Shown: positions 1-61,864, counted from the stretch's first letter. The stretch is DNA of 64,000 nt from an uncultured Gemmatimonadaceae bacterium (GCA_963781585.1 CAWAGQ010000013.1:416001-480000), one strand, 5' to 3'. Translations and numbers: made by a program. The notes: generated by a model not told the origin, from the letters alone.

Positions 1-552
1 GAGGTAGCTTCCCGGCTTCACTCGGGGCATGTCGTACTTGCCCGCGGAGTCGGTGGTGGCCTGCGCGGCGCCGATCACCTGGACCCGCACTCCACTCACG
101 GGCGTGAGGTCCTCGGCGTTGGCGATGATGCCGAAGACGCCGGTACGCTCGGCGCGCACCACGATCGAATCCAGCGGTTGCGGTCCCCGCGGCGTAAGCA
201 CGATGTCCAGGTTCAGATCTGCGTCGCCCACGGTGAAGTCCCGCTCCACCACGCGGTAGCCGAGCGCCTCGACCTCGAGGTTGTGGACGCCCGGCGGAAC
301 GCCGGAAAACTGGAACCTGCCGGCGGCGGTGGTACGGAAGACCCGGGCCGACTGCACCGAATCCATCAGCACCAGGGCGCCTTGAATGGGCAAGCCGGCG
401 GACGAGCGCACCGTGCCGGTCACGATGACAGATTGTGCTTGCGCGATGCCGGGGAGGACGCCTAACGTGGCGGACACCGCCACGGACAGTGAGCCCGCAA
501 TGACAGACAGCAGCAAACCACGAGCGCGCGACGGACAGCCAGAAAGGGTCAT
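1..552 (-). CDS. Secreted protein with tandem carboxypeptidase-regulatory-like domains (partial, runs off window start)
   Basis: Not in the ORF track. Manual translation from ATG 552 is open to position 1: signal peptide ending IAQAQ, then VTGTVRSSAGLPIQGALV...GRFQFSGVPPGVHNLEVEALGY and a second repeat TTDSAGKYDMPRVKPGSYL. Confidence 0.75.
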   Translation of the reverse strand, partial: MTLSGCPSRARGLLLSVIAGSLSVAVSATLGVLPGIAQAQSVIVTGTVRSSAGLPIQGALVLMDSVQSARVFRTTAAGRFQFSGVPPGVHNLEVEALGYRVVERDFTVGDADLNLDIVLTPRGPQPLDSIVVRAERTGVFGIIANAEDLTPVSGVRVQVIGAAQATTDSAGKYDMPRVKPGSYL

Positions 553-574
553 GGCAGTCGGGAGGGGGTGCCCT

Positions 575-2002
575 GTGGAACCCGCACGCAGGGGCGACGT
601 TCCCCTCGATCGCCGCTCCTTTCTCTCGGCTGCCGGCGCGGCCATCGCATTCGCTGCTTTCCCGCGCGCGGTCGCCGGTGCCAGAACCCGCTCCGCGGGT
701 CCGACCTTGGGGCTCGGGCAATCCGCCACGCGTCCCGTGCCGTCGTCGTCGCAGCTCGCCTGGCAGCGCGACGAGCTGGCGCTCTTCCTCCATTTCGGCG
801 TCAACACCTTCACCAACCGGGAGTGGGGGGATGGCACCGAGGACCCGGCGATCTTCGCGCCGGCCCAACTCGACGCCCGACAATGGACGCGGACCGCGAA
901 GGACGCGGGATTCCGCACCCTGATCCTCACCGCCAAGCATCACGACGGATTCTGCCTCTGGCCCACCGCGACCACCGACCACTCGGTGGCGAAGAGTCCG
1001 TTCCGCGGCGGGACCGGCGACGTGGTTCGCGAGTTCACCGACGCCTGTCGTGCCGACGGACTCAAGGCGGGGCTCTACCTGTCGCCGTGGGATCGAAACG
1101 CCCCGGCGTACGGTGACTCGTCGCGCTACAACGACATGTACTGCGACCAGCTTACGGAGCTGCTCACGCGATACGGTGAGGTACAGGAGGTCTGGTTCGA
1201 CGGCGCCAACGGAGAGGGTCCGAACGGCAAGCGCCAGGAATACGACTGGCCGCGTTTCTGGGCGCTGGTCCGGAAGCTGCAGCCCGGGGCTGTCATCTTC
1301 TCCGATGCGGGTCCCGACATTCGCTGGATTGGAAACGAGCGCGGTGTCGCGGCCGAGACCAACTGGTCCACGGTGGATCCGGCGGCAGTTCCGTTTCCGG
1401 GAGCGAGCGGAGACGCGGTGATGGCCATGCTCCGCCACGGCGATCCGGACGGAAGCGCGTGGAGGCCCGGTGAGACCGACGTCTCCATCCGCCCGGGATG
1501 GTTCTATCATCCGGCGGACGACGACCGCGTGAAGACCGTGGACCAGCTCGTGGACCTGTTCTTCTCGTCGGTCGGCAGGAACTCGAAACTCCTGCTGAAC
1601 GTGCCGCCCACCACGAGCGGCCTGCTGCACGATACCGACGTTGCGCGCCTCAAGGGAATGCACCAGGACCTGACCGGGCTGTTCGCCCAGGACTTCGCGG
1701 CGCGAACGCAGCGCTGGCGCCTGACGAGCGAGCGGAGTGCGGTGTCCGAGGTGGACCTCGGCCGGATCGCGCTGGTGTCGGTGTCCGATTCCCGCGAAGA
1801 CGTCGCCCGCGGACAGGTCGTGGCGCGCTATTCCCTCGAAGGTTCCGACGGTGGGCCCTGGCGTCCGCTCGCGCACGGGTCGACCATCGGCTACCGCAAG
1901 CTCGATCGATTTGCAGCGACCGAAGTGCGCCGGGTGCGCCTCCTGATCGAGGACGCGGTCGACACGCCGCGGCCGGTGACGGTGAGTCTCTACGCCGGGT
2001 GA
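575..2002 (+). CDS. Alpha-L-fucosidase (GH29), Tat-exported
   Basis: Motifs FLHFGVNTF, LTAKHHDGFCLW, YLSPWD, VWFDGA, RPGWFYH; DRRSFL twin-arginine signal. Start moved to GTG 575 (GGAGG upstream; avoids overlap with the divergent gene). Confidence 0.92.
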   Translation: MEPARRGDVPLDRRSFLSAAGAAIAFAAFPRAVAGARTRSAGPTLGLGQSATRPVPSSSQLAWQRDELALFLHFGVNTFTNREWGDGTEDPAIFAPAQLDARQWTRTAKDAGFRTLILTAKHHDGFCLWPTATTDHSVAKSPFRGGTGDVVREFTDACRADGLKAGLYLSPWDRNAPAYGDSSRYNDMYCDQLTELLTRYGEVQEVWFDGANGEGPNGKRQEYDWPRFWALVRKLQPGAVIFSDAGPDIRWIGNERGVAAETNWSTVDPAAVPFPGASGDAVMAMLRHGDPDGSAWRPGETDVSIRPGWFYHPADDDRVKTVDQLVDLFFSSVGRNSKLLLNVPPTTSGLLHDTDVARLKGMHQDLTGLFAQDFAARTQRWRLTSERSAVSEVDLGRIALVSVSDSREDVARGQVVARYSLEGSDGGPWRPLAHGSTIGYRKLDRFAATEVRRVRLLIEDAVDTPRPVTVSLYAG

Positions 2003-2986: not shown

Positions 2987-4498
<1,512 letters not shown>

Positions 4499-6186: not shown

Positions 6187-7896
6187 TCAGGGCGCGGCCG
6201 CGGGTGTGGGGTCGGTTGCGGCCCGCGCGACGTGAATCGGCAGCCGGACAATGAAGCGCGTGGAACCCGGCCGCGACTCGACGTCGATGCTGCCGCCGTG
6301 GCGCTTCACCACCACGTTCCGGCTGGTCGACAGTCCGAGCCCGGTTCCCTTGCCGGGTTCCTTGGTAGTGAAGAAGGGATCGAAGATGCACTGGCGCACG
6401 CTTTCGGGCATCCCCGGTCCGTCGTCCTCGACTTCGACGACGACGTGGTCGGAATCCCGGCGCGCCCGCACGATCAGGCGGCCCCGGCCGTTCATCGCGT
6501 CCACGGCGTTGTCGATGAGGTTCGTCCAGACCTGGTTCAACTCGCTTCCGTATGCTTCGATGTGCGGCAGGTCCGGGTCGACTTCGCGCTCCACCGTGAT
6601 GCCCGTTTTCAATTTGCTTCGCAGCATGACGAGCGTGCTGTCAATGCCCTCGACCACGTCCACGAGCCGGACCGGAGCCTGGCCGAGGAACGAGTACGTC
6701 TTGAGGGATTTGACGATCTCGGAGATGCGGCGGGTCGCCTCTTCGATCTCGCGGGCCAGGGCGAGCACGGGTTGAGCGCGGGCGATCCAGGCCACCACGA
6801 CCGCGGTCTCATCACCCCAGTATGCGGCGGCGCGCTCCAGCTCCGCGATATCGTATCCGAGGCTCACCAGGGCGGGGGCGAGCTCCCAGGCGTCGGCGAC
6901 ATTATGGACGTCGAGCCACTCCTCCACCTCGGTCTCGCGGTCGCTGCGGGTGAGGGGATCGATGTAGGACGCCTGGGCCGAGCGCTCGCGGTCATCGCGA
7001 ACGAGGGTGAGCAGCGCGGCCTGGCGCTCGGGCGAGAGGCGCACCTGGGTGAGCGGCACGAACGCATCCTGCAGCTTGGCGAACACCGCGCGCAACTGGT
7101 CGGCGGCCCGGGCCGCGGCCGCCGCCGGGTTGTTCAACTCGTGGGCTACGCCGGCCGCCAGGGTGCCTAACGTCGCCATCTTCTCCGACTGGCGCAGGGC
7201 CTCTTCGGCGGTGCGCAGCAGGGTCACGTCGGCGCCGTAGATGAACACCAGGTTGGCTTCCCTGGCCAGGCGGTGCGCGAACTGGAACGAGCGGCTTCCC
7301 ACTCTGGCCTCGACGCGCACCACGTCGGTCCCGGCCAGGATATGCTGCCAGACTGCATCGGTCAGGCCCGGGCAGAGGTCCTTCCAGCACCGTCCGATCA
7401 GGGTTTCGTCGCCGAACAGCTCGAGCGCCGCCGAGTTGGCGAGCACGATGGTGGCCCCGGCATCCGCGCGGAGCACCGGTCCCGGATTCATCTCCGGGAA
7501 TCGTGCCATCTCGGCGAGCTGCGCCGACTGACGGGCGAGCAGGCGCTCGGCGCGTTTCCGCTCGGTGACGTCGGTGCCGTAGATGAAGATCGAGTCGATC
7601 TCCGGCGGCCGCCGGTAGGTGAACGTGAACGTGCGGTCCCCCACGTCCACCTCCTGGGTGAGTCCGTCCGCTCCGCCCACGACGCGCTGCCAGACCTCCG
7701 GATCCAGGGCCGGGCAGAGCTCGGGCCAGCGCCCGTCGCGGAGGCGCTCGTCCCCGAAGACCGTTCGGGCGGCGGCGTTCACCAGCCGCACGTGCCCATC
7801 CAGGTCGGTGCGGACGACCGGTCCCGGGTTCATCTCCGGGAACGCGGGCATCTCGTTCATGATGCCCTGGTGGGCAGACGGTTCGTTAGGCGGCAT
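6187..7896 (-). CDS. Tandem-PAS sensor histidine kinase
   Basis: Two FPEMNPGPV-initiated PAS-like repeats; VAHELNNPA, NLIDNA, DDGPG, FFTTK, GTGLGL. Confidence 0.9.
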   Translation of the reverse strand: MPPNEPSAHQGIMNEMPAFPEMNPGPVVRTDLDGHVRLVNAAARTVFGDERLRDGRWPELCPALDPEVWQRVVGGADGLTQEVDVGDRTFTFTYRRPPEIDSIFIYGTDVTERKRAERLLARQSAQLAEMARFPEMNPGPVLRADAGATIVLANSAALELFGDETLIGRCWKDLCPGLTDAVWQHILAGTDVVRVEARVGSRSFQFAHRLAREANLVFIYGADVTLLRTAEEALRQSEKMATLGTLAAGVAHELNNPAAAAARAADQLRAVFAKLQDAFVPLTQVRLSPERQAALLTLVRDDRERSAQASYIDPLTRSDRETEVEEWLDVHNVADAWELAPALVSLGYDIAELERAAAYWGDETAVVVAWIARAQPVLALAREIEEATRRISEIVKSLKTYSFLGQAPVRLVDVVEGIDSTLVMLRSKLKTGITVEREVDPDLPHIEAYGSELNQVWTNLIDNAVDAMNGRGRLIVRARRDSDHVVVEVEDDGPGMPESVRQCIFDPFFTTKEPGKGTGLGLSTSRNVVVKRHGGSIDVESRPGSTRFIVRLPIHVARAATDPTPAAAP

Positions 7897-7939: not shown

Positions 7940-9322
7940 CTAGTGTCGCGCCGGGGCGCCGGCGGTGGCGACGTCCGGCGCCAGCGGCGCCACGTCGCGC
8001 GTGCCGCTCACCGCGACTGTTTCCGGCAGCGCCAGTGGCGTGCACACGCTGTACCGGCCCGCCTTCCCCGAGATGCGATCGGGCCGGCCGCCCAGCCGAC
8101 GCATCGCGAACAGGAACGGAATCGCCAACCCGGTGGCGAGGCCGCCAAGCACGTAGCCCGTCCCCAGGGCGGTGCGTGACGCCACCCAGCCGAGACCCGC
8201 CTGGCCCGCCATGCTGCCTCCACTGGCGACCAGCGACGCGAGGGACAACACCGTCGCCCGTTGCTCGCGGGCGACCACCAGGTGCAGGTACGCCTGACGC
8301 ACCGGCTGGAAGACGCCGGTGCTCATCATGCCGACCAGGTACAGGGGAACCGCCAGCCAGAACGATTTCGCGAGCCCGACCCCGATCGCGGTCGCGGCGA
8401 ATATGGCGGCCGCGCCTAACAAGAGCGTGGTCCGACGGCCGCAGAACCGGGTGAGGCGCTCGGCAGCCCAGTTGCCGATCATCATCGACAGGGAAATCAG
8501 CGCCGCGATGACGCCGGTCACCCAGGCCGCCGACGCGCCCAGCAACCCGAGGAAATACGGCTGCCAGGCATGATATCCCCACTCCAGGAAGACCGCGGGC
8601 ATGGCGCCGGCCAGAATCGCCACCCGCGCGTTCGGCTGGTTCCAGCCGAACGCGATGCTCTCCCGCCCCACCCGCGCCATCTCGGCCGGGACGGCGCGCA
8701 GCGGCAGCGATCGCACGGTGAACCCGACCTCGTGCATCGTGGCCAGCGCCGTGCCGAAGGCGATCATCAGGAGGGCGGCGCGCGCGAGATAGGGCAGCCT
8801 GAGGTCGAGACTCCCCAGCAGACCACCGGCGATGGTCCCAACCAGCATGGCCGCGGAAGAGATCATCGACCCCCGCGCCATGACGCGATCCACCGGGTCC
8901 GCGTTCCCGACGGCGTTGAGCGCATCCACCACCCAGGCTTCGACCGCGCCGGAATAGAACGTGTACCCCAGGCCCAGGATCACCGAGACCACGCAGAACC
9001 AGCCGAATCCGCCGCCTAACGCGGGGACGGCGGCGTAGAGGAGCGTCCCGACGAACAGAATCGCCGTGCTCAGGAGAAACGAGAGCCGTCGTCCCCTCGT
9101 GTCGGCCACGATTCCGGTCGGCACCTCGAACACCGCCATGCTGCCGGTAAAGACGGCGTTCGCCAGAAAGACCTGCAGCAGCGTGAGTCCGCCCACCCGC
9201 AGCAGGAAGAGCGTGTTGATCCCCCAGATCAGCGACGCCGACAGCGTGTAGACGCCAGCGATCACATAATACCCCCTCGCGATCTGCTGCGATGTCGGCA
9301 TGCCCTGGCGCCAGGAGGCCAT
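7940..9322 (-). CDS. MFS transporter
   Basis: About 12 hydrophobic segments; motif A EVPTGIVADTRGRR. Alternative start at 9301. Confidence 0.88.
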   Translation of the reverse strand: MASWRQGMPTSQQIARGYYVIAGVYTLSASLIWGINTLFLLRVGGLTLLQVFLANAVFTGSMAVFEVPTGIVADTRGRRLSFLLSTAILFVGTLLYAAVPALGGGFGWFCVVSVILGLGYTFYSGAVEAWVVDALNAVGNADPVDRVMARGSMISSAAMLVGTIAGGLLGSLDLRLPYLARAALLMIAFGTALATMHEVGFTVRSLPLRAVPAEMARVGRESIAFGWNQPNARVAILAGAMPAVFLEWGYHAWQPYFLGLLGASAAWVTGVIAALISLSMMIGNWAAERLTRFCGRRTTLLLGAAAIFAATAIGVGLAKSFWLAVPLYLVGMMSTGVFQPVRQAYLHLVVAREQRATVLSLASLVASGGSMAGQAGLGWVASRTALGTGYVLGGLATGLAIPFLFAMRRLGGRPDRISGKAGRYSVCTPLALPETVAVSGTRDVAPLAPDVATAGAPARH

Positions 9323-10386: not shown

Positions 10387-10746
10387 GGTTCCCATCCCTG
10401 TGGAAGCGAACGCGCGTGGCCGCGTGGGACCCATCCCGCGGAACCCGTTTGACTGGTGCGGCGTCCCGATGGCGGCTCTCCCGTCCGGGTGCACGCCTGA
10501 CATCAGCTCCAGCCCGGATGGGACAGGTACCACAATACGGCCATTGGCCCGCTTCGACCAGATTATCATGCGCTCGTAACGAAGGGCTAATCCTGCCGTA
10601 ACCGAATCGCCGCGCCGCCGGGGTACTGCCCGGAATGCACCCGGCGCGCGCGTGGATGACGCAACCCAAATTCCGGTCCTGAATACAGGAGAGGAACCCT
10701 GGCCCTTCCGCCTGCCGCTTCGATACGTCGTCCAGGTCTCGCCACG

Positions 10747-12192
10747 ATGTGCCGTCCGTCACCTTCGGTGTCGTGGCTGGCGCTGCTGGCGCTGGCGTGC
10801 TCCGCAGCGCGGATGCGACCCGCGGCGGACTTGGCGACGCCCGCCTGCGAGACCCGGGCCGGGGCCGGCCGGTTGGTCGATTCGCTCGTGGTGGCGGTGA
10901 CCGGAGACATCGCGCCGACGCGAATGATGCGAATGCCTAACGCCGGCGAGCGATTCGTGTTCGCGCAGGCCTACGAAACGCCGGTGCGGCGGGATTGCAC
11001 GGGGCGCCTCGTCCCCGGCCTGGCGGCCTCGTGGCGGTACGACAGCGTCTCGACGGCGTGGACGATCGTCCTCCGCGACAGCGCGCGCTTCTGGAACGGC
11101 GACCCGGTAACGGCGCCCGCGGTCCTCGAGGCCTGGCAGAGCGATCCGTTCGGCGCCGGCGACCCGCTGGCGCCGCGCCTGCTCGACTCCGCTATGGCGA
11201 TCGACAGCCGGACGATCGTCGTCAGGCTGAATGCCGCGGGAGCATCCGTGCTGGCGGACCCCAGGCTGGCCGTGGCGCGCGCGCGTGCCGCCTCCCGATG
11301 GCCCGAAGGCACGGGCGCCTACGCGGTTCGCCCGTCGGCCGGCGCAACCGTGGAGCTCGCGCGCACCACGCCCGGCGCCACACCGCGCGTAGTCGTGCGC
11401 GCCGTATCGGAGGCACAGGCGCGCGACTTCGTCGATGCGGGGGTGGACCTCCTCCTCACCGACAACCGGCGCGTCGCCGCCTACGCTGCCACCCGGGACG
11501 ATCTGTCCTCGGTGACCCTGCCGGTCGACCGCACCTATGTGCTGGTGAGCCCGTACGCGGGCGTGAATGACGCCGGCGCGAGATCTGTTGTTGAGAGTGG
11601 CGCCGGTGTATCGCGCCTTGGCGAGGCGCTCGCGCGCGACGCTGTCGGATTCGAGGCGCGCCCGCCCGCGACCCCCACCTGGTGGACGCAGGCCGTCGGG
11701 TGCGGACTGCCCGCGCCGACCGTTCCTGCCAGATCCGTGGATCAACCGGTTCCGCGCGTGGTCTTTCGTCGCGGTGATGACTTTGCCCGCGGTCTCGCCA
11801 ATCGTCTGGCCGCCCTCGCCGCGATCGGCGGCGCCGCTGATTCGGCGTCGCTCGGCGCGGTTGCGCCCGGCCTCCTCACCGCCGGAAACGCGCTCCGCGC
11901 AACGGGCCTCGCGGCAGGCGATTTCGCCAGCGCGCTGGCGAGCGGAGACGCCCTCGGGTTCATCGTGGATCTTCCCCGACAACCCCTCGCGCCCTGCGTC
12001 GATCTGGCCGCTCTTGCCCGAACCATGCCGTGGCTGGCGTGGCGCGAAACCGGCGTGCCGGCAATCACGCCGCTGGTGGATGCGTACTGGCGCGCCTTCT
12101 TCAGGCGGGATGGCGCGGGATTTCTGCTCGACGGTGATGGCGGCATGCGGCTGACCAACGCGCCGACGCCGCGCGGCGGGATGGTGCCGTGA
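10747..12192 (+). CDS. Family-5-like substrate-binding lipoprotein
   Basis: Lipobox LALAC; LVPGLAASW...LRDSARFWNGDPVTA motif; translationally coupled to the downstream kinase. Confidence 0.7.
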   Translation: MCRPSPSVSWLALLALACSAARMRPAADLATPACETRAGAGRLVDSLVVAVTGDIAPTRMMRMPNAGERFVFAQAYETPVRRDCTGRLVPGLAASWRYDSVSTAWTIVLRDSARFWNGDPVTAPAVLEAWQSDPFGAGDPLAPRLLDSAMAIDSRTIVVRLNAAGASVLADPRLAVARARAASRWPEGTGAYAVRPSAGATVELARTTPGATPRVVVRAVSEAQARDFVDAGVDLLLTDNRRVAAYAATRDDLSSVTLPVDRTYVLVSPYAGVNDAGARSVVESGAGVSRLGEALARDAVGFEARPPATPTWWTQAVGCGLPAPTVPARSVDQPVPRVVFRRGDDFARGLANRLAALAAIGGAADSASLGAVAPGLLTAGNALRATGLAAGDFASALASGDALGFIVDLPRQPLAPCVDLAALARTMPWLAWRETGVPAITPLVDAYWRAFFRRDGAGFLLDGDGGMRLTNAPTPRGGMVP

Positions 12193-13868: not shown

Positions 13869-13959
13869 TCTCGTCAGGCAGGCTACCGTGTTCACGGCTC
13901 GTTTGCGCCAGTCCCGCGTCCCCGCACGCCGGTTCGCCCGTCCCCATCTTCCCTTGACC

Positions 13960-15324: not shown

Positions 15325-15413
15325 GCAGTCGGCCGGGAGAGAGCGACACTCCCGGCCACCCGCGGAATCACGCTGGCGCAGACACGGCGCCGCGGGGGGA
15401 ACCGCCGGGCGAC

Positions 15414-15563: not shown

Positions 15564-15625
15564 CTTCTCACGTGGGAGTCACCCACAACCCCGGCGCCTC
15601 AGGCGCCTGACGATAGGAGGAGAAG

Positions 15626-20719: not shown

Positions 20720-20981
20720 TGCGAGGCCGAGTACGCGAGAGAGAGGGACGAGCGCCGGGACGACGGAAACAAATCACTATTCGAGGAGAACGCGATAGGA
20801 CTCGGAGGAAACTGGCGCGCTCCCGCATCCACCGGTATTTCCGACCGCCATCGCCGTCTCCGTGAACTGGCTTGCCGATCTGAACCGCAGAAGTGCCACG
20901 TTAGGCTCGATCCTGCCGAGGCTCGATGCCGCGGTGAACCCGCGGCCCCCGATGCCGCGCCATGATGACCCGCAGGCCGGG

Positions 20982-35236: not shown

Positions 35237-35401
35237 GCTGCCGGGCGGACCTCGTGTCCAATCGCGATGCGGCGGGCGGGTGCGAGGAGTTTGCGGACCA
35301 GATCGAGCGTCTCCGTCACCTGTCCAGGCTGCCGGGTTGGACGCCAGAGGCGGGAAAAGGATTGGCCGTCCGTCCGCTGGACGCGCGACCATCGCCGCGG
35401 T

Positions 35402-47549: not shown

Positions 47550-48206
47550 TCATTGCCCGCGCCCGTCGTGGCGCAGCCCGTTGAGCACGAGGTCCAGCAT
47601 TTCCTCGCCGACCTGTTCCACCGGTCCATGGCGGGCCGGATCGTACCACATGAAGATCCAGTTCAGCATACCGAAGATGAACAGCGTGGCGTGGCGGCTC
47701 TCCCGCGATGCCCCGGCAGCGTTAGGCGGACCGTCCTTCACCTCCGCGACCACGTCCGTCATCAGCCGGTAGTAGCGCCGGCGCAGCGACTGGATGGTGT
47801 GGTAGGGCTCGCCCGTCAGCGATTCCAGCTCGTACGTGCACGCCTTGAGCTCGTTGCGATGGTGCGAGAAGAACCCGAGGTGTCCGATCAGCAGCCGTCG
47901 GAACCGCTCCTCCGGCGTGCCGGGCTGCTCGGCGACTTCCTCCTGCGCCTGCAGCAGTGAGCCGAAGGTCCGGTACTGGAGCTGATAGAGCAGGTCCTCC
48001 TTGCTGGCGAAATAATGGTACAGGCCCGCCAGGCTCACCCCCACCGCCTGGCTCACGTCGCGCATCGAGGTCGCCTCGAATCCCTTCTCCGCGATCAGCG
48101 CCGCCGCCCGGGCCAGCAGGTGATCGACCTTCTGCCGGGTCGTCGCCCGTGGGCGCTGGTGGCGTGCCGTGGCGGCGGGCATGGCGGGATCACGCGGGAT
48201 CGTCAT
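47550..48206 (-). CDS. TetR-family regulator (PaaR/KstR2-like)
   Basis: KGFEATSMRDVSQAVGVSLAGLYHYFASKEDL; FGMLNWIFMWY. Confidence 0.9.
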   Translation of the reverse strand: MTIPRDPAMPAATARHQRPRATTRQKVDHLLARAAALIAEKGFEATSMRDVSQAVGVSLAGLYHYFASKEDLLYQLQYRTFGSLLQAQEEVAEQPGTPEERFRRLLIGHLGFFSHHRNELKACTYELESLTGEPYHTIQSLRRRYYRLMTDVVAEVKDGPPNAAGASRESRHATLFIFGMLNWIFMWYDPARHGPVEQVGEEMLDLVLNGLRHDGRGQ

Positions 48207-51061: not shown

Positions 51062-51936
51062 CGCTGCGTCTCGCGTGCCCGCGCGACCGCCTGGGCGAGC
51101 GCACGACGGGTGAGCACATTCACCAGCTCGCGACGGAAACCGGCCGATCCCCGGATATCGGTCACCGGCAACGCCTCCTCGGCGCATAGCGCGCCCGCGA
51201 GCGCAAACAGCTCGTCCGAGACGGACTCCCCCTCCAGGACCTTCATCGCGCGCACCGCCAGGAGGGGCACCGGCGCCGCCGCACCTAACGCTATCCGGGC
51301 GCCCGAGATGCTCGCGCCGTCCAGCACCACGCGCGCCGCGACCGCCGCGACCGCAAGCGCTGCGCCGCGCCGGCGGGCGAAGCGCTGGTAACTCGCCCCC
51401 GAACGCGCCGGTTGCGCGGGAACGATTACCTCCACGAGCACTTCACCAGGACCGAGCACCGTGCGACGTGGACCGATGAAGAAGTGCTCGGCGTCGATCT
51501 CGCGCCCACCATCGGGGCTCATCGTCCGGACGCGCGCCTCGCCGACGATCGCCACGGGGGGCGTGTCCGCGCACGGCACGGCCCGGCAGAAATTCCCGCC
51601 GATCGTCGCCAGGCTCCGGATCTGCGGGCTGCCGAGCACGCGCGCCGCTTCGGCCAGCGCCGGAAACCAGGAGCCAACAAGCGGCGACCTCGCCACCTCG
51701 GCGATGGACGTCAGGGCGCCGATGCGGAGCAGCCCGTCCGCCGCGCGAATGCCGCGCAACTCGGCGACGCCGTCGAGCGCGATCAGGTGCCGGGCCGACT
51801 CCCGCTCTCTATGGTAGTCCGGCAACAGTTCGGTCCCGCCGGCCAGGAATGCGCCATCGGGTCCCAAACGCCGACCGAGCGCGCAGGCTTCGGCCAGGCT
51901 GTTGGGGCGATAATAGGCGAGCGCCCCGTTGCTCAT
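51058..51936 (-). CDS. FAD-binding medium subunit of a xanthine-oxidase-family enzyme (CoxM/HcrB-like)
   Basis: LAGGTEL, GSPQIRSLATIGGN, DIRGSAGFRR. Confidence 0.88.
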   Translation of the reverse strand: MSNGALAYYRPNSLAEACALGRRLGPDGAFLAGGTELLPDYHRERESARHLIALDGVAELRGIRAADGLLRIGALTSIAEVARSPLVGSWFPALAEAARVLGSPQIRSLATIGGNFCRAVPCADTPPVAIVGEARVRTMSPDGGREIDAEHFFIGPRRTVLGPGEVLVEVIVPAQPARSGASYQRFARRRGAALAVAAVAARVVLDGASISGARIALGAAAPVPLLAVRAMKVLEGESVSDELFALAGALCAEEALPVTDIRGSAGFRRELVNVLTRRALAQAVARARETQR

Positions 51937-53248: not shown

Positions 53249-54516
53249 CAGCTCACCATCCGGCTCGCGAACAGCGCCGCGCCCAGCGCACCGGTATAGA
53301 TGCTGTCGGGCGAGATGTTGAGCGTCCGTTCGCCATAGTTTTCCCGCACCAGATCGTGGATCGCGCGCACCGCGGCGGGATTCTTCGCCACGCCGCCGGT
53401 GAACGTGAATTCGTCGAACACGCCGCCCGAGCGCGCCAGCAGGCTCATGGCCCGGATCACGATCGCCCGGTGCAGGCCGGCCAGGATGTCCTCGCGGCGC
53501 TCACCTAACGACAGTCGCTCGCGCAGCTCGGCGCCGGCGAACACCGTGCAGGTGGAGTTGATCTTGACCCGCCGCTTCGCCTGCTCGGCCAGCGGACCCA
53601 GCTCGTGCAGGCCGAGGTTCATCTCGTCGGCGATGTACCCCAGATAGCGGCCGCACCCCGCGGCGCAGCGGTCGTTCATCTGGAAGCTGGTAACGATGCC
53701 CTGGCCGTCCACCTGGATCGCCTTGGTGTCCTGCCCGCCGATGTCCAGCACGGTCCGCGTGGCCGGGAACATCGCGTGCGCGCCCAGTCCATGGCACAGG
53801 ATCTCGGAGCGGATCTGCTCCTTGGGGAAGGGCAGCCGCGCGCGGCCGTATCCGGTTCCCACCGTCGCCGCCGGCGTGAGGTCCATGGTCGCCGCGAATT
53901 CCACCGCCTCCGCCAGCGCCGGCCGATCGACCCGCTTGAGGGCCGATCCGATATGGTCGCGGAAGTCCAGCTCGAGCGGTTCATTCTCCACGCGGATGAT
54001 GCACTTGTCGTAGGCGCCGACCAGCCGCTCGTGGCTGGCCCCACCCGGGTCCGCCAGCTGCTCGGCGAAACGCATGAACGCCGAGCCCGCGGCGTCGCGG
54101 AAGAAGTCCGAGCGCAGCATCGGTGGCTGCCTGAAACGCGCCTCCTCCTCGCTCGCGATCCGCCGGCAGATCTCGGAGAGCGTCGCCGACAGGGGCGCCT
54201 TCAACGCCGCCGGTGCGGACTTCTCGACCTCGTCCAGCATCAGCTGATCGAGCCGGCGAAGCTGATGGAGCATCTGCTCCAGTACGAACGCCCGCCGCAG
54301 CCGACTGACCGCCGCCGCCGCGCGGTCGTCGCCCGCGCGTTGCTCCACCAGCGCGAACCGGGCGTTGATGAACGCCTCGGTCTTGGCGACTGCGGCCGCG
54401 AGGTCGTAGTTCGATCGTGAGTTGGTGATGCCACGCCCCAGCACCTGGCGGTGCTCGTCGAGAATGAGCGCCTTGGTGGTGGTGGAGCCGAGGTCGATTC
54501 CGACGACGCAGCTCAT
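53248..54516 (-). CDS. bcrA: Benzoyl-CoA reductase subunit A
   Basis: GIDLGSTTTK, GRGITNSRSNY, RSEILCHGLGAH, MNDRCAAGCGRYLG, NSTCTVFAG. Confidence 0.93.
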   Translation of the reverse strand: MSCVVGIDLGSTTTKALILDEHRQVLGRGITNSRSNYDLAAAVAKTEAFINARFALVEQRAGDDRAAAAVSRLRRAFVLEQMLHQLRRLDQLMLDEVEKSAPAALKAPLSATLSEICRRIASEEEARFRQPPMLRSDFFRDAAGSAFMRFAEQLADPGGASHERLVGAYDKCIIRVENEPLELDFRDHIGSALKRVDRPALAEAVEFAATMDLTPAATVGTGYGRARLPFPKEQIRSEILCHGLGAHAMFPATRTVLDIGGQDTKAIQVDGQGIVTSFQMNDRCAAGCGRYLGYIADEMNLGLHELGPLAEQAKRRVKINSTCTVFAGAELRERLSLGERREDILAGLHRAIVIRAMSLLARSGGVFDEFTFTGGVAKNPAAVRAIHDLVRENYGERTLNISPDSIYTGALGAALFASRMVS

Positions 54517-55787: not shown

Positions 55788-56954
55788 CAGGCGGTCCCCC
55801 AGAGTTTTATGGAATCGGAGAAGGTCCCCGCCTGTTCGCGGAATTGCTGGAATTGCCCGGTGTTCTCCGCGTACTTGAAGGCGATGCACGGGATGCCGGA
55901 CTGCTCCGCGCCGGCGCGCAGCATCGGCTGGTCGAGCAACGACGGATCGCAGAAGCTCGGCGCCGCGAAGATGATGCCGTCGGCCCGGGCCGCATCGACC
56001 CGTTCTTTCATCAGGCGTTTCTTGCCGCCTGCGTCGCCTTCATACAGGATCGAGGTCCGCAGCTCCGTATGTACGAACGACTCGGCCAGCGCGCGCACCG
56101 GGTCGTCGTCCAGGGCCACCGGGCGGGTGAGAAACCGATTCCCCAGCATGAAGTCGTCGTCGACGATGTAGCACCCGGCGCGTTCGATCGACATGATGAG
56201 ACCGAGCGGAGGCTGCTCGCAGAACGCCCCCGCAATCACTACCCGGCTGTTGTCGCGCGGGCGGCGCGGATCCGCTTCCACCGCGGTCAGAAAGCGACGC
56301 GCCATCGCCAGGAACTCGTCAGGCGGCACGACCTCGCCGGCCCGAAGCAACAGGTACAATTCCTCGGTCGACACATCCCAGGGACGATCCCGCCGCACGC
56401 GGTACAACGCGCGTATCATCTCCCGCATCTCGTTGTAGACCGCGATCGAACGGCGGAGGTCGTCGTCCGACGCGGGCTGACCGGCCACCCGCTCGAAGAT
56501 CCTGCCGCAGCCGCCGCAGCTCGCTCTCCCAGAAGTCGGCTGCCGCCGCGGGATCGGGCACCTGTGGTACGTCGAGGTAGCGCACGTACAGATCGGGGTA
56601 GAGCAACTTCCAGATCCCCGACAGATTGCGGATGACGTCGCAGGTGGAAGGGAAGAGGACCGCCGAGAGCATGTCGAGTCGACCCGACTGCGCCAGCTCG
56701 ATCACCGACCGCGGCAGGTGACAGATATACGATTGATAGAAGGCGTCCCCGCGGATGATCTCGAGGCGGTCGCCGCCGCCGTGAATCCCCACCGGGAGAA
56801 ACCCGCAGGCGTGCAGGATCTCGCGCGGCGCGTAGACGGGGAGGTAGCCACCCGCCTTGCGACCGGGATGCTCGCCCAGCCACCGCCTGACCGCGGTGAA
56901 ATCCAGGTCCTCGTACAGATCCCGCGCCCAATCGACGATCTCAGCGCGCGTCAC
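55787..56954 (-). CDS. bcrC: Benzoyl-CoA reductase subunit C, split by a 1-nt frameshift near 56496
   Basis: GDAFYQSYICHLPRS, STCDVIRNLSG in the first frame; FCEQPPL, SFCDPSL, FKYAENTGQ in the second. Deleting one T from GATCTTCGAG restores DLERVAG. GTG 56954 has a GGAGG RBS. Confidence 0.88.
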
Positions 56955-57208: not shown

Positions 57209-59230
57209 GTGGGTTTTCGCTTCAAGGGTCTCGCCTTCGAGCGCGTCGGGGTCGTCGGGTCCGGTCAAATCGGTCCCGACATCGCGCTCTATTTCGCCAA
57301 GGCATTGCACGAATACGGCGTGTCAGTGGTGGTGGTCGACGTCTCTGGCGACGCGTTGGCGCGGGGGCGATCGAAGCTCGAGCAGAAGGTCACGAAGGGG
57401 AGGGAATCGGGCGCCTTCTCGCCAGCCGCCGCCGAGGCGATCCTGAGCAGCGTCACCTTTACCACCGACGACGAATCGATTCGCGGTGCGGGTCTGATCG
57501 TGGAGGCCGCGACCGAGAACCTCGACGTCAAGCGCCGGATTTTCGCCCGACTCGAGGACCTCACGGACCCAGCGGCGATCCTCGCCTCGAACTCATCGCA
57601 CATCGAGCCGGACGAGATCTTCACCGGGCTCCGCCACCAGGACCGGGCGCTGGTCATCCACTACTTCTTCCCGGCCGAGCGGAACCCACTCGTTGAAATC
57701 GTCCCTTCCCGGCACGTGGGCGATGCGCTCGTCCGCCAGGTGATGGCGCTGTACGAGGCGATCGGGAAGGTCCCCGTTCGCGTGGCGAGTCGGTACGGCT
57801 ACGCCGTGAATCCGGTGTTCGAAGGACTCTTTCTCGCCGCCGCGCTCGCGGTCGAAGCGGGACTGGGAACGACGAAGGAGGTCGACATCGCCGCGCGCGG
57901 TGCGCTGGGCCTCGGTGTGGGGCCGTTCACGGCGATGAATCTCACCGGCGGCAACCCGATCACTGATCACGCGCTCGACGAGATGCACCTGCGCTTCGGC
58001 GCCTGGTGGCGCTCGCCCGCCCTCATGAAGGAGGCAATGTCGTCGGGGCGGCCGTGGGACGTCGCGAAACGGGACGAGCGCGTCTCGATCCCGGAAGAGC
58101 GCGAACGCAGAATCGTCGGCGTCATGCAGGGAGCGTACCTCGGTCTTGTCGGACAGATCCTCGACACCGGCATCATCACCCCTGGTGACATGGAGTTGGC
58201 GGTGGAGGTCGGCCTCGTAATGCGTCCGCCGCTCGCGTTCATGAACGAACTTGGCGTGGACCGTGCGCTGTTGCTGGTCGAGGCGTATGCCGCGGACCAT
58301 CCCGGGTTCCCGGTGCCGCGATTCCTCGTCGACCAGGCACGCACCGCCCGGCCATTCCCCGTCGAGCACGTCGTGAGGCGCGACGACCGCGACGTGGCCG
58401 TGCTCACGATACGCCGGCCGCAGGTTCTGAACGCGCTCAGCGACGACGTGTACGCCGAGCTGTACGATCGGTTTGCTGCGCTGCGCGATGACCCGGCGAT
58501 TGCGGCGGTTGTGCTCACCGGCTTCGGTACCAAGGCCTTCGTTTCCGGCGCTGACGTCAAATTCCTGTCGAGCATCGATTCGCCACAGGTCGGGTTGGAG
58601 ACGTCGGAGCGCTCGAAGCGAACTGGCGATCTCATCGAGCATCTCGGCAAGCCGGTGATCTGCGCGCTCAACGGCTTTGCGATGGGCGGCGGCAACGAGC
58701 TGGCGATGTGCTGCTCGGCGCGGCTGGTGAAGAAGGGGCTGAAGCTCGCCGTCTCGCAACCCGAGGCGAATCTGGGCATCATCCCGGGCGCCGGGGCAAC
58801 GCAGCGCCTCCCGAGACTGGTGGGCGTCGAACGGGCGGCCGGGCTGCTCCGGACCGGTCGTGGATTGTCGTCGCGTGAGGCAGTGGAGTGCGGTCTCGCG
58901 CGTGAAGAGGTCGAGGGGGACGTGGTGGAAGCGGCGGTATCGCTGGCGCGCGCTGCGGCGCGTGGCGACATCTGCCTGACGACGATCGATCCGGCGCCGC
59001 TCGACACGCCGGCGTCAGTCCCGCCGGTCGACATCGGTCACCTGAGTCGCGCGATCGATGCGCTCCTGTGCCGCGCCGTCATCGAAGGGTGCCGGAAGCC
59101 GCTGGCCCAGGGGCTGCGCTTCGAGTCGGAGCTGTTCGGTGCGTGCTGCGCGACTGAGGATATGCGGATCGGCGTGCGCAATTTCCTCGAGAACGGACCC
59201 CTGGTGAAAGCCGTGTTCGTGCATCGGTGA
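57209..59230 (+). CDS. 3-hydroxyacyl-CoA dehydrogenase / enoyl-CoA hydratase fusion
   Basis: GSGQIG, VEAATE, ASNSS, HYFFP; C-terminal crotonase AFVSGAD, GGGNELA, QPEANLGIIPGAGATQRL. Confidence 0.9.
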   Translation: MGFRFKGLAFERVGVVGSGQIGPDIALYFAKALHEYGVSVVVVDVSGDALARGRSKLEQKVTKGRESGAFSPAAAEAILSSVTFTTDDESIRGAGLIVEAATENLDVKRRIFARLEDLTDPAAILASNSSHIEPDEIFTGLRHQDRALVIHYFFPAERNPLVEIVPSRHVGDALVRQVMALYEAIGKVPVRVASRYGYAVNPVFEGLFLAAALAVEAGLGTTKEVDIAARGALGLGVGPFTAMNLTGGNPITDHALDEMHLRFGAWWRSPALMKEAMSSGRPWDVAKRDERVSIPEERERRIVGVMQGAYLGLVGQILDTGIITPGDMELAVEVGLVMRPPLAFMNELGVDRALLLVEAYAADHPGFPVPRFLVDQARTARPFPVEHVVRRDDRDVAVLTIRRPQVLNALSDDVYAELYDRFAALRDDPAIAAVVLTGFGTKAFVSGADVKFLSSIDSPQVGLETSERSKRTGDLIEHLGKPVICALNGFAMGGGNELAMCCSARLVKKGLKLAVSQPEANLGIIPGAGATQRLPRLVGVERAAGLLRTGRGLSSREAVECGLAREEVEGDVVEAAVSLARAAARGDICLTTIDPAPLDTPASVPPVDIGHLSRAIDALLCRAVIEGCRKPLAQGLRFESELFGACCATEDMRIGVRNFLENGPLVKAVFVHR

Positions 59231-59236
59231 GCCGGT

Positions 59237-61864
59237 TCAGTCCGACCGCAATGCCGTCAGCGGGTCGGTCCGCACGGCGCGTCGCGCCGGCATCCAGATG
59301 GCACCGACTGCCACGCCGAACAGCAACGCCGGCGCCGCCACCAGAGTCAGGCCGTCCAGCGCCGTCACCCCGTAGAGCAGCCCGGCGAACACGCGCGCAA
59401 CCGCGAACGTCGCGGTGAGGCCGATGCCGATCCCGGCGCCCGCCAGGACAGCGCCCCGCGTCAGCACCTCACGAAACACCTGGCGCGGTGAGGCGCCGAG
59501 GGCCATGCGCACGCCGAGCTCGCGAGTTCGCTGCGCAACCGTGAACGAGACCACGCCATAGATTCCGACCGCGCCCAGGCCTAACGCCAGCAGGGCGAAG
59601 CCGGTCAGCAGCAGGGCCGTGAACCGCGCCCGCGCGACCGAGGACGATACGATCTCGCCCATGGTCCGCACGTCGGTGACCGGAGCGGTCGGGTCGAGTG
59701 CCGCCACCGCCGCGCGCAGCGTCGACGCGAATGCGGTCGCCTCACCCGCCGTGCGGGCGACGATGGTGAGATCGGTCTCCGGAAGCTGGGCCAGCGGCCG
59801 GTAGATCGTCATCTCGTTGGTGCCGTTGACGCTGTCCTGCTTGACCTCCCGCGCAACGCCCACGATGGTGATCCACGTGCTGGTGTCGGCGGGTGGGCTG
59901 ATGCGTTTGCCGACCGCGTCCTCGTCAGGCCAGAAGTGACGAGCCACCGATTCGCTGACGATGGCCACCGGAGGTGCATGGGCACGATCGGCGCTGGTGA
60001 ATGGGCGCCCGCGCGCGATCGGGATGGACATGGTCTCGAAGTATCGCGGCGTGATGTGCTGCTCGTGTTCGATCATCGGCAGCTCATGCCGCGCATCCTC
60101 ATACTGTCCCTCGACCCGCACGGCCATCCCGTACACGGGTCCGCGGAGCGGCGGCCGGTCGATCGCCGCCACCGCCGTGATCCCCGCGGCCGACTCGAGG
60201 CGCGCAAGAAGGGCGTCGAGGAACGCGGCCCGCCGCGCCGGTTCGCGATAGCTGCCGATCGACAGCGTGACCCGGCCGGCGATCACCCGGTCGCCGCGGA
60301 ATCCCGGATCGACCCGCCGCAGGGCGTCGAAGCTGCGCAGCAGCAACCCCGATGCCGCGACCAATACCACCGCCAGCGCCAGCTGCAGCGCGGTCAGCCC
60401 GCCCGCCAGACGGCGATGCTCGACGTTGGCGGACCCGCCCCGCGCAGCGAGCGCGGCCCCCGGATCGTGGCGCGCCGCCCGCTGGGCCGGGAGGAGTCCG
60501 AACGCGATCCCGCATGAGGCGGTGAGTGCCGCGGTGAACAGGAGCACCCGTCGGTCCACAGCGACTGGCGCCGTGCCGCCGATTTGCGCGGGAAGCCCGG
60601 TGACCAGGGCGTGCACGCCGGCCCAGGCGAGCACAATGCCCACCGCGCCCCCGATGCCCGCCAGCACCAGATTCTCGGTAAGGAGCTGCCGGGTCAATCG
60701 CGCCCCGCTGCACCCCAGCGCCGTGCGGACCGCGAACTCACGGGCGCGGCCGATCGACCGGACCAGCACCAGATTCGCCACGTTGGCGCATGCGATGAGC
60801 AGCAGCGCGAGAACGACGCCAAGCAGGACCAGGAGAGTGGTGCGCGCTGGCCCGGCGATTTCGGACTGAAGCGGCACGACGGTAGCGTCGTCACCGAAGG
60901 TCGGACCGGCGTCCCATAGCGGATTCTCGCGCCGCATGAGGTGTGCGGCGGCCTTCGCGTCACGCTCGGCCTGGGCGAGCGATGCGCCGGCGCGGAGCCG
61001 CGCGAGCGCGTGGTATTTGTACCATCCCCAATAGTTGCCCGCGTTGGTGGGATCGAACGTCGACTGGATCCAGAGTTGTGTCGCGACGGTCGGGAAGTAG
61101 AACGACGGCGGCATAATGCCCACGATGGTGAACCGCACCCCTTCCACCAGAATCGTGCGCCCCACAAGGCCCGTGTCGCCGCCGAATTGCGCGCGCCAGA
61201 AGGCATCGCTCAGGATCGCTTCGCGCGGTGACCCGGGCTTGTTGGCGCCGGGCGAGAAATCGCGGCCCCGCGCCGGCGATACGCCCAGGGTGGTGAAGAG
61301 GTTCTCCGAGACGTCCATGCCCTCGGCGCGCACCGCGGTTGCATCGTCGCCCACGTTCATCTGCCACCCCGAGTAGGTGGCGAACTGCGAGAACGATCGG
61401 GCATGATCGCGGATGCCGAACAGCACACCGGCGGACATGTTGCTCCACACGCTGACCAGCCGGGCGGGCCGTCGGTACGGGGGTGGACGAAACAGCAGCG
61501 CATCGGCGACGCTGAAGATGGCTGTGTTGGCCCCGATGCCCAGCGCCAGCGTGACCACGACCGACGCGGCGTAGCCGGGTCGGGTGACGAGGGCCCGAAG
61601 CGCGAATCGCACGTCCCGCTGCAGATCGCCCATCCATTCCCGGGCCGCGCGACGCTCACGCGCCGACTCATCGAGGTGCTGGAGCTCCGACCGCACCGTG
61701 GTGCCGTCGCCAAACCGGCGCACGGCTTCCCGTTCGGCGTCTTCGCGCGTCATCCCGCGTGCCACGAAGTCGTCGATGCGCCCCTCGACGTGAAAGGCCA
61801 GCTCGTCGTCGATGTCGCGGCGGACGCCGCGGCGTGTGAGGGGAAGACGAAACAAGCGCTTCAC
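59237..61864 (-). CDS. ADOP-family duplicated ABC permease (MacB/FtsX-like)
   Basis: DDELAFH, TLALGIGANTAIFS, LLIACANVANL, RTRELGVRMALGA, DPLTALR. GTG 61864 is coupled to padR. Confidence 0.92.
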   Translation of the reverse strand: MKRLFRLPLTRRGVRRDIDDELAFHVEGRIDDFVARGMTREDAEREAVRRFGDGTTVRSELQHLDESARERRAAREWMGDLQRDVRFALRALVTRPGYAASVVVTLALGIGANTAIFSVADALLFRPPPYRRPARLVSVWSNMSAGVLFGIRDHARSFSQFATYSGWQMNVGDDATAVRAEGMDVSENLFTTLGVSPARGRDFSPGANKPGSPREAILSDAFWRAQFGGDTGLVGRTILVEGVRFTIVGIMPPSFYFPTVATQLWIQSTFDPTNAGNYWGWYKYHALARLRAGASLAQAERDAKAAAHLMRRENPLWDAGPTFGDDATVVPLQSEIAGPARTTLLVLLGVVLALLLIACANVANLVLVRSIGRAREFAVRTALGCSGARLTRQLLTENLVLAGIGGAVGIVLAWAGVHALVTGLPAQIGGTAPVAVDRRVLLFTAALTASCGIAFGLLPAQRAARHDPGAALAARGGSANVEHRRLAGGLTALQLALAVVLVAASGLLLRSFDALRRVDPGFRGDRVIAGRVTLSIGSYREPARRAAFLDALLARLESAAGITAVAAIDRPPLRGPVYGMAVRVEGQYEDARHELPMIEHEQHITPRYFETMSIPIARGRPFTSADRAHAPPVAIVSESVARHFWPDEDAVGKRISPPADTSTWITIVGVAREVKQDSVNGTNEMTIYRPLAQLPETDLTIVARTAGEATAFASTLRAAVAALDPTAPVTDVRTMGEIVSSSVARARFTALLLTGFALLALGLGAVGIYGVVSFTVAQRTRELGVRMALGASPRQVFREVLTRGAVLAGAGIGIGLTATFAVARVFAGLLYGVTALDGLTLVAAPALLFGVAVGAIWMPARRAVRTDPLTALRSD

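Follow-up and report, generated by a model that had tools for sequence, protein, structure and literature searches.

Analysis of a 64-kb stretch of DNA from an uncultured Gemmatimonadaceae bacterium (hereafter the window; 68% G+C, with no compositional break) revealed that the octamer CGTTAGGC (reverse complement GCCTAACG; hereafter M1) is a lineage-specific hyper-abundant word of some Gemmatimonadaceae, with one copy per ~1-3 kb. The window contains 21 exact copies, 13 on the plus and 8 on the minus strand, corresponding to a density of 0.33 per kb. M1 is placed in genes on both strands by silent codon change, under a constraint at the DNA level. We tentatively propose that M1 is a self-recognition tag for homologous DNA exchange among relatives, similar to the DNA uptake sequence (DUS) of Neisseriaceae, the uptake signal sequence (USS) of Pasteurellaceae and the highly iterated palindrome HIP1, and that it may have been spread by molecular drive.

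The excess of M1 is real. The initial annotation had counted 24 GTTAGG/CCTAAC cores by eye, 21 of them within the exact octamer; a recount returned the same positions with the same near-balanced orientation (13 plus, 11 minus), the three other cores being the one-letter variants TGTTAGGC (n = 1) and CGTTAGGT (n = 2). Its estimate of 2-3 expected cores was too low, as the computed expectation for the hexamer is 5.66. The scarcity of other TTAG/CTAA words was also confirmed, since 24 of the 30 such tetramers in the window lie inside M1 (21) or its one-letter variants (3). Dinucleotide-preserving shuffles gave an expectation of 0.78 copies of M1, and none of 100 shuffles reached 21. Markov models of order 1 to order 3 gave 0.4-0.9 copies (0.4-0.6 at order 2 and 3). 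For a codon-preserving null, a gene map was built from the G+C content of third codon positions (GC3) and Pfam, and synonymous codons were permuted inside each gene; the excess over this null stands, with 2.85-3.1 copies expected and a maximum of 7 among 500 shuffles. The null is conservative because the motif's own rare codons stay in the pool and the stop-codon and intergenic copies are not moved. A maximal-order Markov expectation shows no excess, because sub-words of M1 themselves carry that excess, and the models of order 1-3 and the codon shuffles were used instead. No 7-, 8- or 9-mers in the window deviate from the codon-preserving null as strongly as the families of M1 and of a second word, M2. 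One-letter variants of M1 are hardly enriched in the window, with the exception of CGTTATGC (4 copies versus 0.3 expected).

All M1 copies but one lie within genes or on stop codons (20/21), and the reading frames listed in the initial annotation hold with refined counts. Nine copies read as xCG-TTA-GGC (Leu-Gly) in the sense direction. ACG-TTA-GGC is found in the PAS histidine kinase gene (7165..7172, minus), the unassigned open reading frame (ORF) 22024-22611 (22507..22514, minus) and the PD40/amidohydrolase gene (32184..32191, plus). GCG-TTA-GGC is found in the MFS transporter gene (9014..9021, minus), the KorA-like gene (29260..29267, plus), the enoyl-CoA hydratase gene (44141..44148, minus) and the MacB/FtsX permease gene (59579..59586, minus), and CCG-TTA-GGC in the Sortilin/BNR gene (18098..18105, minus) and the Pyr_redox/Fer4 gene (27204..27211, plus). 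Eight copies are antisense and read as G-CCT-AAC-G (Pro-Asn): ACG-CCT-AAC-GTG in the fucosidase gene (460..467, minus), CCG-CCT-AAC-GAA in the PAS histidine kinase gene that also holds the copy at 7165 (7884..7891, plus), ATG-CCT-AAC-GCC in the SBP_bac_5 gene (10935..10942, minus), CCG-CCT-AAC-GTG, GGG-CCT-AAC-GCG and AAG-CCT-AAC-GTG in the Sortilin/BNR gene (19084..19091, 20179..20186 and 20512..20519, all plus), GGG-CCT-AAC-GTC in the AMP-binding ligase gene (37164..37171, plus) and CCG-CCT-AAC-GCT in the TetR gene 47550-48323(-) (47720..47727, plus). One antisense copy reads as CGC-CTA-ACG in the xanthine-dehydrogenase-like gene (51032..51039, plus). Two copies provide genuine CGT-TAG stops, for the sigma-54 activator gene (15319..15326, plus; stop 15322-15324) and the PD40/amidohydrolase gene (35231..35238, plus; stop 35234-35236). 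The sole intergenic copy lies in the gap between the Sortilin/BNR and DUF2911 genes (20899..20906, plus). The variant TGTTAGGC, 83-fold enriched in Gemmatirosa (see below), reads as TTG-TTA-GGC in the MFS gene (8414..8421, minus), and the two CGTTAGGT copies read as GCG-TTA-GGT (51283..51290, minus) and TCG-TTA-GGT (53503..53510, minus).

The codons used for M1 are among the rarest available. TTA accounts for 14 of about 20,100 codons in the window, and ~11 of these 14 sit in G-TTA-GG[CT]. Typically a Leu codon CTN preceding GGC has silently become TTA, or a Pro codon CCG preceding AAC has become CCT. By the gene map lacking the TetR gene, M1 occupies 7/13 x-P-N-[VADEG] sites and 9/61 [SPTA]-L-G sites at which synonymous codons could spell it. 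No conservation was seen in the flanks of word copies, and the conserved flanks, intergenic placement and common descent of dispersed repeats of the repetitive extragenic palindrome (REP) or miniature inverted-repeat transposable element (MITE) type were not found for M1.

Comparison with relatives supports the earlier claim that the constraint acts on DNA and not on protein, because relatives free of M1 encode the identical peptides with common codons. At residue 220 of KorA (peptide AALGC), GCG-TTA-GGC is used in the window and in loci L005, L006, L010, L011 and L058, and mostly CTG/CTC elsewhere. At residue 148 of the Pyr_redox/Fer4 protein (peptide MPLGY), CCG-TTA-GGC is used in the window, L001, L006, L011 and L012, and CTC/CTG elsewhere. 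L012 and L014, which carry M2 only, have TTA-GGG at KorA residue 220, which looks like a relic. Turnover of copies between relatives is high. L006 and L004 (82% nucleotide identity) have 1/5 aligned M1 copies in common, and the window and L001 (79%) have 2/4 aligned window copies in common, one of them the copy at 20512; both aligned copies of L001 (2/2) are common to the window. At the place of the window copy at 20179, L001 has CGTTCGGG.

The survey covered 80 loci (1.25 Mb in total) from genomes other than the window's own, fetched by a KorA-like protein search whose top matches, at 80% identity, are Gemmatimonadaceae assemblies. Enrichment of M1 was limited to the window's KorA clade, with 52 copies in its 33 loci (480,916 bases) and 2 copies in the other 47 (773,858 bases). 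Every one of the eight loci with at least 3 copies belongs to this clade: L006 (11 per 16.9 kb), L009 (12 per 21.8 kb), L011 (6 per 4.7 kb), L018 (8 per 14.3 kb), L058 (4), and L001, L004 and L005 (3 each). M1 is absent from 23/33 clade loci, sisters of carriers included. The distribution of M2 is partly independent (L014, 9 copies; L012, 6; L009, 12), and its 8-letter core occurs in L013 (8 copies) and L010 (10), where a 5' T is hardly or not at all preferred. Carriers differ in dialect: M1 only (L011, L006, Gemmatirosa), M2 only (L012, L014) and both (the window, L009). M1 and M2 are confined to a patchy subset of the Gemmatimonadaceae, where 'patchy' holds only relative to the KorA tree, because this is the gene tree of one protein obtained by a quick method. 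Contigs L033, L044 and L055, labelled Gammaproteobacteria, Thermoanaerobaculia and Polarisedimenticolia, nest in the Gemmatimonadaceae KorA clade, reflecting either mis-binning or transfer of the kor operon.

The idea that each lineage owns a dispersed word was dropped after ten of the enriched octamers of motif-free relatives had been viewed in context. Eight of the ten were tandem arrays (chiefly of heptamers) or clustered composite repeats, one encodes CxxCH and one is the M2 core. The CxxCH case is AGCTGTCA, enriched at 15906-18846 of L004, which codes for the haem-binding motif (TGC-xxx-AGC-TGT-CAC) in multihaem cytochrome genes and is a protein-level word mimicking a DNA motif. Heptamer arrays were observed in L060 (AGCCGGA), L036 (ACCGGCT, CCGACTA) and L010 (AACGAGG), together with a 16-mer array in L002. 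In L018, a Gemmatimonas sp. contig, clustered composite repeats of ATGGACTG, ATAGCTAT and GATAACT units lie at 5420-5680 and 10959-11060.

M2 (TCGTCAGGC; reverse complement GCCTGACGA) was found by k-mer scans and is a second hyper-abundant word, as frequent in the window as M1, which the initial annotation had missed. It occurs 21 times (12 plus, 9 minus), with 1.1-1.4 copies expected by Markov models and 2.5-2.9 by the synonymous shuffle. M2 differs from M1 by T to C at position 4 and by the need for a 5' T, which precedes 21/28 copies of CGTCAGGC in the window. Within genes M2 is read in five ways. In antisense it appears as CGC-CTG-ACG-AGC (1719..1727, minus), CGC-CTG-ACG-ATT (12898..12906, minus), CGC-CTG-ACG-AGT (17617..17625, plus, Sortilin/BNR gene; 33786..33794, minus), TGC-CTG-ACG-ATT (28353..28361, minus) and TGC-CTG-ACG-ACG (58974..58982, minus). 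Also antisense are CCG-CCT-GAC-GAG (18414..18422, plus, Sortilin/BNR gene; 56316..56324, plus), GCG-CCT-GAC-GAC (20073..20081, plus, Sortilin/BNR gene; 36593..36601, plus), CTG-CCT-GAC-GAG in the hybrid kinase gene (23901..23909, plus), GTG-CCT-GAC-GAG in the ADH gene (36048..36056, plus) and TGG-CCT-GAC-GAG in the MacB gene (59922..59930, plus). In the sense direction it is read as GTC-GTC-AGG-CTG (11219..11227, plus), CTC-GTC-AGG-CAG (13871..13879, plus) and GTC-GTC-AGG-CTC (62570..62578, plus), as ACT-CGT-CAG-GCG (42392..42400, minus) and TCT-CGT-CAG-GCG (63675..63683, minus), and as TCG-TCA-GGC (15797..15805, plus); the sense copy at 39233..39241 (minus) lies in the overlap of two stop-to-stop ORFs and reads as TCG-TCA-GGC or CGT-CAG-GCG. 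The intergenic copy (15605..15613, minus) lies in the gap between the sigma-54 activator and TPR genes. An origin of M1 by deamination of M2 was rejected, as a 5' T precedes 21/28 CGTCAGGC copies but only 1/21 M1 copies, and M1 arises mostly from CTN-GGC, which requires two changes.

One M2 copy, at 28353, speaks for the rival view that such words result from codon usage, repeated peptides, mobile elements or misassembly. Its nine-letter word, at residue 531 of the Pyr_redox/Fer4 protein, coincides with a conserved C-L-T-I peptide and is present in 20 genomes, the window and 19 fetched loci, some of them of other phyla. Because this peptide yields M2 even outside the phylum, some M2 copies are products of coding, and the copy at 28353 may be one of them. 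L011 instead has M1 (CTA-ACG) at this residue and also has CTA-ACG at KorB residue 33. As an explanation of M1, a by-product is extremely improbable. It is refuted by the codon-preserving null (about 3 versus 21), by the orthologous codons and by the abundance in Gemmatirosa described below; the rarest codons are used, and the flanks are unconserved. Assembly error is likewise contradicted, since M1 occurs both in a finished genome from PacBio data and in assemblies made independently in several studies.

The cultured relative Gemmatirosa kalamazoonensis KBS708, two megaplasmids of which were found by protein search of a plasmid collection, allowed M1 to be examined on a whole replicon. Two 50-kb samples of the megaplasmids contain 29 and 45 copies of M1 and none of M2. 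Plasmid 2 (1,040,503 bases, 72.8% G+C) carries 701 copies of M1, or 0.67 per kb, against 2.4-4.6 expected from Markov models of the motif-masked sequence, an enrichment of 150-300-fold; 701 of its 891 TTAG tetramers fall inside M1. Plasmid 1, with 29 copies per 50 kb, shows a similar density. The base 3' of M1 is a purine in 84% of copies, which is partly a first-codon-position effect. When M1 was masked, TGTTAGGC was the only other dispersed enriched word on plasmid 2. Enrichment of one-letter variants is confined to four transitions, TGTTAGGC (85 versus 1.0 expected), CGCTAGGC (13 versus 1.7), CGTCAGGC (157 versus 50) and CGTTGGGC (150 versus 29), with none at positions 2, 6, 7 or 8.

Occupancy of compatible sites on plasmid 2 was determined from 458 genes, called crudely by GC3, that together span 73% of the replicon. 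At Leu-Gly sites, TTA-GGC is used in 257/890 cases after a codon ending in CG, 38/398 after TG, 5/229 after GG and 3/192 after AG, and in 0/736 after a codon without a final G. The Pro-Asn class (G-P-N-G) independently shows the same order (124/226, 11/46, 3/40 and 1/17), and 1/141 sites is occupied where the preceding base is not G. The relative occupancy at position 1 is thus 1 : 0.33-0.44 : 0.08-0.14 : 0.06-0.11. The word is strict at positions 2 and 8 and graded at position 1 (C>T>>G,A), and the sites that are cheapest to convert are near saturation, with up to 55% occupied. The variant TGTTAGGC occurs as CTG-TTA-GGC in 50/85 and as GTG-TTA-GGC in 21/85 copies (L-L-G and V-L-G peptides). 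Since a C at position 1 would alter these proteins, TGTTAGGC is the best silent approximation to M1 and not its decay product.

No strand polarity of M1 was found on the whole of plasmid 2, the two orientations numbering 335 (plus) and 366 (minus). The halves defined by cumulative GC skew hold 191:240 and 144:126, 45:55 overall, and per-locus comparison with GC skew and coding strand gave inconsistent orientations. The FtsK-orienting polar sequences (KOPS) and architecture-imparting sequences (AIMS) show strong strand polarity that switches at the terminus. Replication-oriented signals, KOPS and classical Chi, are excluded because such polarity is missing. The argument from lack of strand bias in the initial annotation therefore holds for KOPS and for a replication-oriented Chi, and fails for a Chi of the type that acts at two-ended breaks or on incoming DNA. 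Such a signal, read by a RecBCD/AddAB-type enzyme on linear DNA arising from two-ended breaks (e.g. upon desiccation) or from outside, is in our judgement unlikely, although protection and recombination of linear DNA can also act as a drive. Like Escherichia coli Chi, M1 is a non-palindromic octamer, and graded activity of variants and a lineage-specific sequence are properties of Chi. On the other side, the orientation is 45:55 on a 1.04-Mb replicon and inconsistent between loci, the 150-300-fold enrichment exceeds the values known for Chi, and neighbouring copies do not alternate (399 tandem versus 301 opposite). HIP1 has been suggested to work partly in a Chi-like way, in the part available of bioRxiv 10.1101/2024.09.10.611283.

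The spacing of M1 is more even than random and short gaps are avoided. On plasmid 2 the coefficient of variation (CV) of the gaps is 0.908, compared with 0.997 ± 0.038 for random placement, and 86 gaps of 50-400 bp were found where 142 are expected. Under a null that places copies on compatible sites with class counts kept, 43 such gaps compare with 75 ± 6.9 expected, and 0/2000 simulations were as low. A second copy near a first is disfavoured, and hence the force acts on DNA stretches and not on single sites. Plasmid 2 has no significant motif desert; its copies are at most 10.2 kb apart, and 7 gaps of at least 6.4 kb compare with 9.4 expected. The even spacing is not significant in the window (CV 0.76-1.04), and among the loci L009 alone is nominally significant. 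Short tandem arrays of 15-bp and 12-bp units with one word copy per unit were observed at ~697547-697600 (L096) and ~108118-108175 (L085) of NZ_CP007130.1.

Both the spacing and the turnover bear on the idea that M1 is bound by a protein that structures the chromosome or serves a housekeeping role, with each copy under direct selection and no drive, an explanation that we find rather improbable. It would agree with the use of both orientations, the fairly even spacing, the similar density on plasmids 1 and 2 and the retention of some copies between relatives at 79% identity. However, the sites of known nucleoid proteins are degenerate or AT-rich, or are long palindromes numbering a few tens, and not thousands of exact octamers, and with up to 55% of compatible sites occupied, selection at each of them would have to outweigh the use of the rarest codons. 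The high turnover (1/5 aligned copies common to L006 and L004) also speaks against it, and selection per site for a housekeeping function is hard to accept because close relatives lack the word altogether.

Sites of restriction-modification systems are methylated at nearly all copies and are usually avoided in the genome, and sequencing by the single-molecule real-time (SMRT) approach of the 2014 era was poor at detecting 5-methylcytosine (m5C). M1 behaves differently from such sites, being enriched 150-300-fold and lying outside the methylated motifs of KBS708. SMRT data at about 100-fold coverage revealed three N6-methyladenine (m6A) motifs in this strain, RGATCY, ATGCAC and CCAGN7TCA (PMC3974934). 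M1 matches none of these three reported motifs, and the paper does not say whether others were sought. An m6A or N4-methylcytosine (m4C) mark on M1 is unlikely because thousands of copies at ~100-fold coverage would very likely have revealed one. The earlier suggestion of a modification-driven motif is thus unlikely in its m6A or m4C form and possible in its m5C form. A crude short motif for C5-methyltransferases gave 0 matches among ORFs of the DNA analysed, which is weak evidence.

These data also bear on a methylation-linked repair ratchet, after Elhai's model for HIP, in which a C5-methyltransferase marks the word or part of it and methyl-directed nicking or mismatch repair fixes word-creating mutations, up to about one copy per repair range. 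We consider this unlikely, and rank it second, before the Chi-like signal and the structural protein site. In the part available of PMC4390886 the model predicts a ceiling near one per kb with no need for a function of the word, and both a ceiling and short-range avoidance were seen here. The patchy distribution and the one-letter shift between M1 and M2 fit mobile methyltransferases with altered target recognition, M1 begins with CG and ends with GC, and the poor detection of m5C leaves this mark possible. Conversely, the KBS708 data at ~100-fold coverage hold no m6A or m4C motif matching M1, specificity at position 1 is graded and not all-or-none, and TGTTAGGC at L-L-G and V-L-G peptides looks like independent gain and not deamination of xCG sites. 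The crude methyltransferase search, as far as it goes, also counts against it.

Taken together, the findings point to a force that reads the exact double-stranded word either way with grading at one position, prevails over strong codon preference and reaches a plateau of about one copy per kb. This force also disfavours close neighbours, shifts its specificity by one letter from relative to relative and is missing from many of them. Mutation or repair that works purely locally, one near-cognate site at a time, leaves the avoidance of neighbours unexplained. The remaining models, preferential uptake of tagged fragments, better survival or recombination of tagged incoming DNA (Chi-like, or as suggested for HIP1), and the methyl-directed repair ratchet with a range of about 1 kb, all act on DNA segments. 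Self-recognition of the uptake type is ranked first because the word is not a palindrome, has dialects and is read with graded specificity, and the HIP1-like or uptake-sequence-like behaviour noted in the initial annotation is borne out. In this proposal the word would be read by a protein that binds DNA with graded specificity, and fragments bearing it would be taken up, or would survive and recombine, more often, giving preferential transmission of word-bearing alleles. Molecular drive would then spread the word to roughly one copy per kb, with the cost of rare codons as a brake. The function in uptake or recombination, the drive and the reader protein are what we infer. A fuller version, a kin-recognition system whose dialects, two or more in number (CGTTAGGC and TCGTCAGGC among them), are interconvertible and whose novel reader protein biases uptake or recombination towards kin, is possible but somewhat more doubtful.

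Several observations weigh against self-recognition. The phylum is not known to be competent, competence terms are missing from a Gemmatimonadota genomics paper, and the window showed no gene for a receptor, competence or recombination with a link to the word. For DUS or USS it is unusual that one genome carries two words equally densely. Variants of M1 are hardly enriched in the window, and those in Gemmatirosa are limited to transitions at positions 1, 3, 4 and 5. Among 700 neighbour pairs on plasmid 2, those closer than 100 bp comprise 14 opposite and 28 tandem pairs (arrays included). The methylome covers m6A and m4C, so a methylation-linked mechanism via m5C is possible, and the avoidance together with the ceiling of about one per kb fits Elhai's repair-range model equally well, to judge from the accessible portion of PMC4390886.

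The window also contains a block at 38.4-56.7 kb with two BcrAD/HGD-D clusters and a xanthine-dehydrogenase-like set. The block holds 3 M1 and 3 M2 copies (6/42), or 0.33 per kb compared with 0.62-0.87 elsewhere (binomial p = 0.025 for scarcity). Per peptide-compatible site, however, the counts are 2/34 versus 15/119 (p = 0.36) and 3/10 versus 17/51 (p = 1). The view of the block as motif-poor foreign DNA was rejected, being not significant once compatible sites are controlled. The long residence that the initial annotation had read from the presence of M1 in the bcr cluster is equally unsupported, and the data speak for neither long residence nor a recent arrival, because the difference per compatible site vanishes. 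The BcrAD/BadFG ATPase and HGD-D genes (benzoyl-CoA-reductase-like) form two sets at 38381-43761 and 52397-56701. Beside them lie a xanthine-dehydrogenase-like set of three domains (48203-51951), a KorAB-like oxidoreductase and the Pyr_redox/Fer4 protein that partners it (26762-31474), genes resembling those of beta-oxidation and an AMP-binding ligase, and the surroundings look like a region for anaerobic aromatic degradation.

Further features were observed in the window. A heptamer tandem array, GGTCAGC x 13.1 with 97% matches, lies at 2987-3078 between an outer-membrane-barrel-like ORF and a histidine kinase gene. Directly downstream of the fucosidase stop codon, at 2016-2091, the 17-bp unit ACGACCCGCACGGGGTC is repeated 4.5 times with 100% identity. 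The small protein encoded at 10066-10569 (minus) combines a Cdd1 and a helix-hairpin-helix domain (PF11731, PF14520), a DNA-binding fold; no tie to the word was shown. Two TPR ORFs overlap in different frames at 15626-16300 and 16125-16610 (plus), which may reflect a frameshift or two short genes.

A full-text literature search, with subscription journals largely outside its range, returned no earlier description of M1; no paper contains the octamer as a whole word in either orientation, none links Gemmatimonadetes to the term 'DNA uptake sequence', and none links Gemmatimonas to 'overrepresented' plus 'octamer'. M1 goes unmentioned in the KBS708 genome paper (PMC3974934). Hyper-abundant genome words are known from very few bacterial groups, and each case has raised questions of gene exchange, self-recognition and molecular drive. 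The Gemmatimonadaceae are a major, little-studied soil lineage in a phylum with almost no genetics. Because the cultured and fully sequenced KBS708 carries M1 at 0.67 per kb, uptake, binding and methylation tests are feasible now, and the genome-derived specificity profile (graded at position 1, absolute at positions 2 and 8) is a quantitative prediction for experiment. The coexisting dialects are a natural experiment on specificity change. In addition, M1 could mark DNA for binning and for judging residence time in these genomes, and should it promote transformation in the way that HIP1 does in cyanobacteria, it could be a practical aid to tractability. If the kin-recognition proposal is true, this would be the first uptake-sequence-like system beyond Proteobacteria and cyanobacteria, and frequent natural transformation in soil Gemmatimonadota would be implied.

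M1 was also compared with known systems. KOPS and AIMS share with M1 the over-represented octamer, but are strongly skewed to the leading strand, unlike M1 at 335:366 and 45:55 by replichore. Chi, read by RecBCD/AddAB, is likewise a non-palindromic, lineage-specific word, of 5-8 letters, with partly active variants, whereas M1 lacks replication-linked polarity and is enriched to a very large extent. HIP1 (GCGATCGC) and the alternate HIPs of cyanobacteria are octamers imposed on coding DNA, kept between relatives and quasi-regularly spaced, as is M1. According to the portions available of the respective sources, HIP1 is enriched 15- to 300-fold (PMC5861425) and is absent from some cyanobacteria, some of which have other words instead (PMC4390886), and methylated HIP1 raises transformation and has been proposed as an uptake sequence (bioRxiv 10.1101/2024.09.10.611283, PMC13756078). 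However, HIP1 is a palindrome, while M1 differs from its own reverse complement, and HIP1 is methylated, by two enzymes according to the accessible part of PMC13756078, while the methylome of the carrier KBS708 lists no motif matching M1. DUS and USS, with 9-12 letters, are longer than the words found here (8-9), often form inverted terminator pairs at gene ends in Neisseria and Haemophilus, and do not normally occur as two equally dense words in one genome; close inverted M1 pairs are absent from the window and few on plasmid 2, the host phylum has no known competence, and an uptake bias for M1 is what we infer. Other features are shared with M1, the properties of DUS and USS being partly general knowledge and partly taken from what is available of PMC3630211, PMC3458573 and PMC2397512. 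Like M1, which reaches up to 12 copies per 21.8 kb in relatives, is of about balanced orientation in the window and on plasmid 2 and has dialects, DUS and USS are short non-palindromic words that occur about once per kb in both orientations and in the lowest-cost frames of genes, with dialects of related lineages differing by one or two letters, position-dependent strictness and spacing more even than random.

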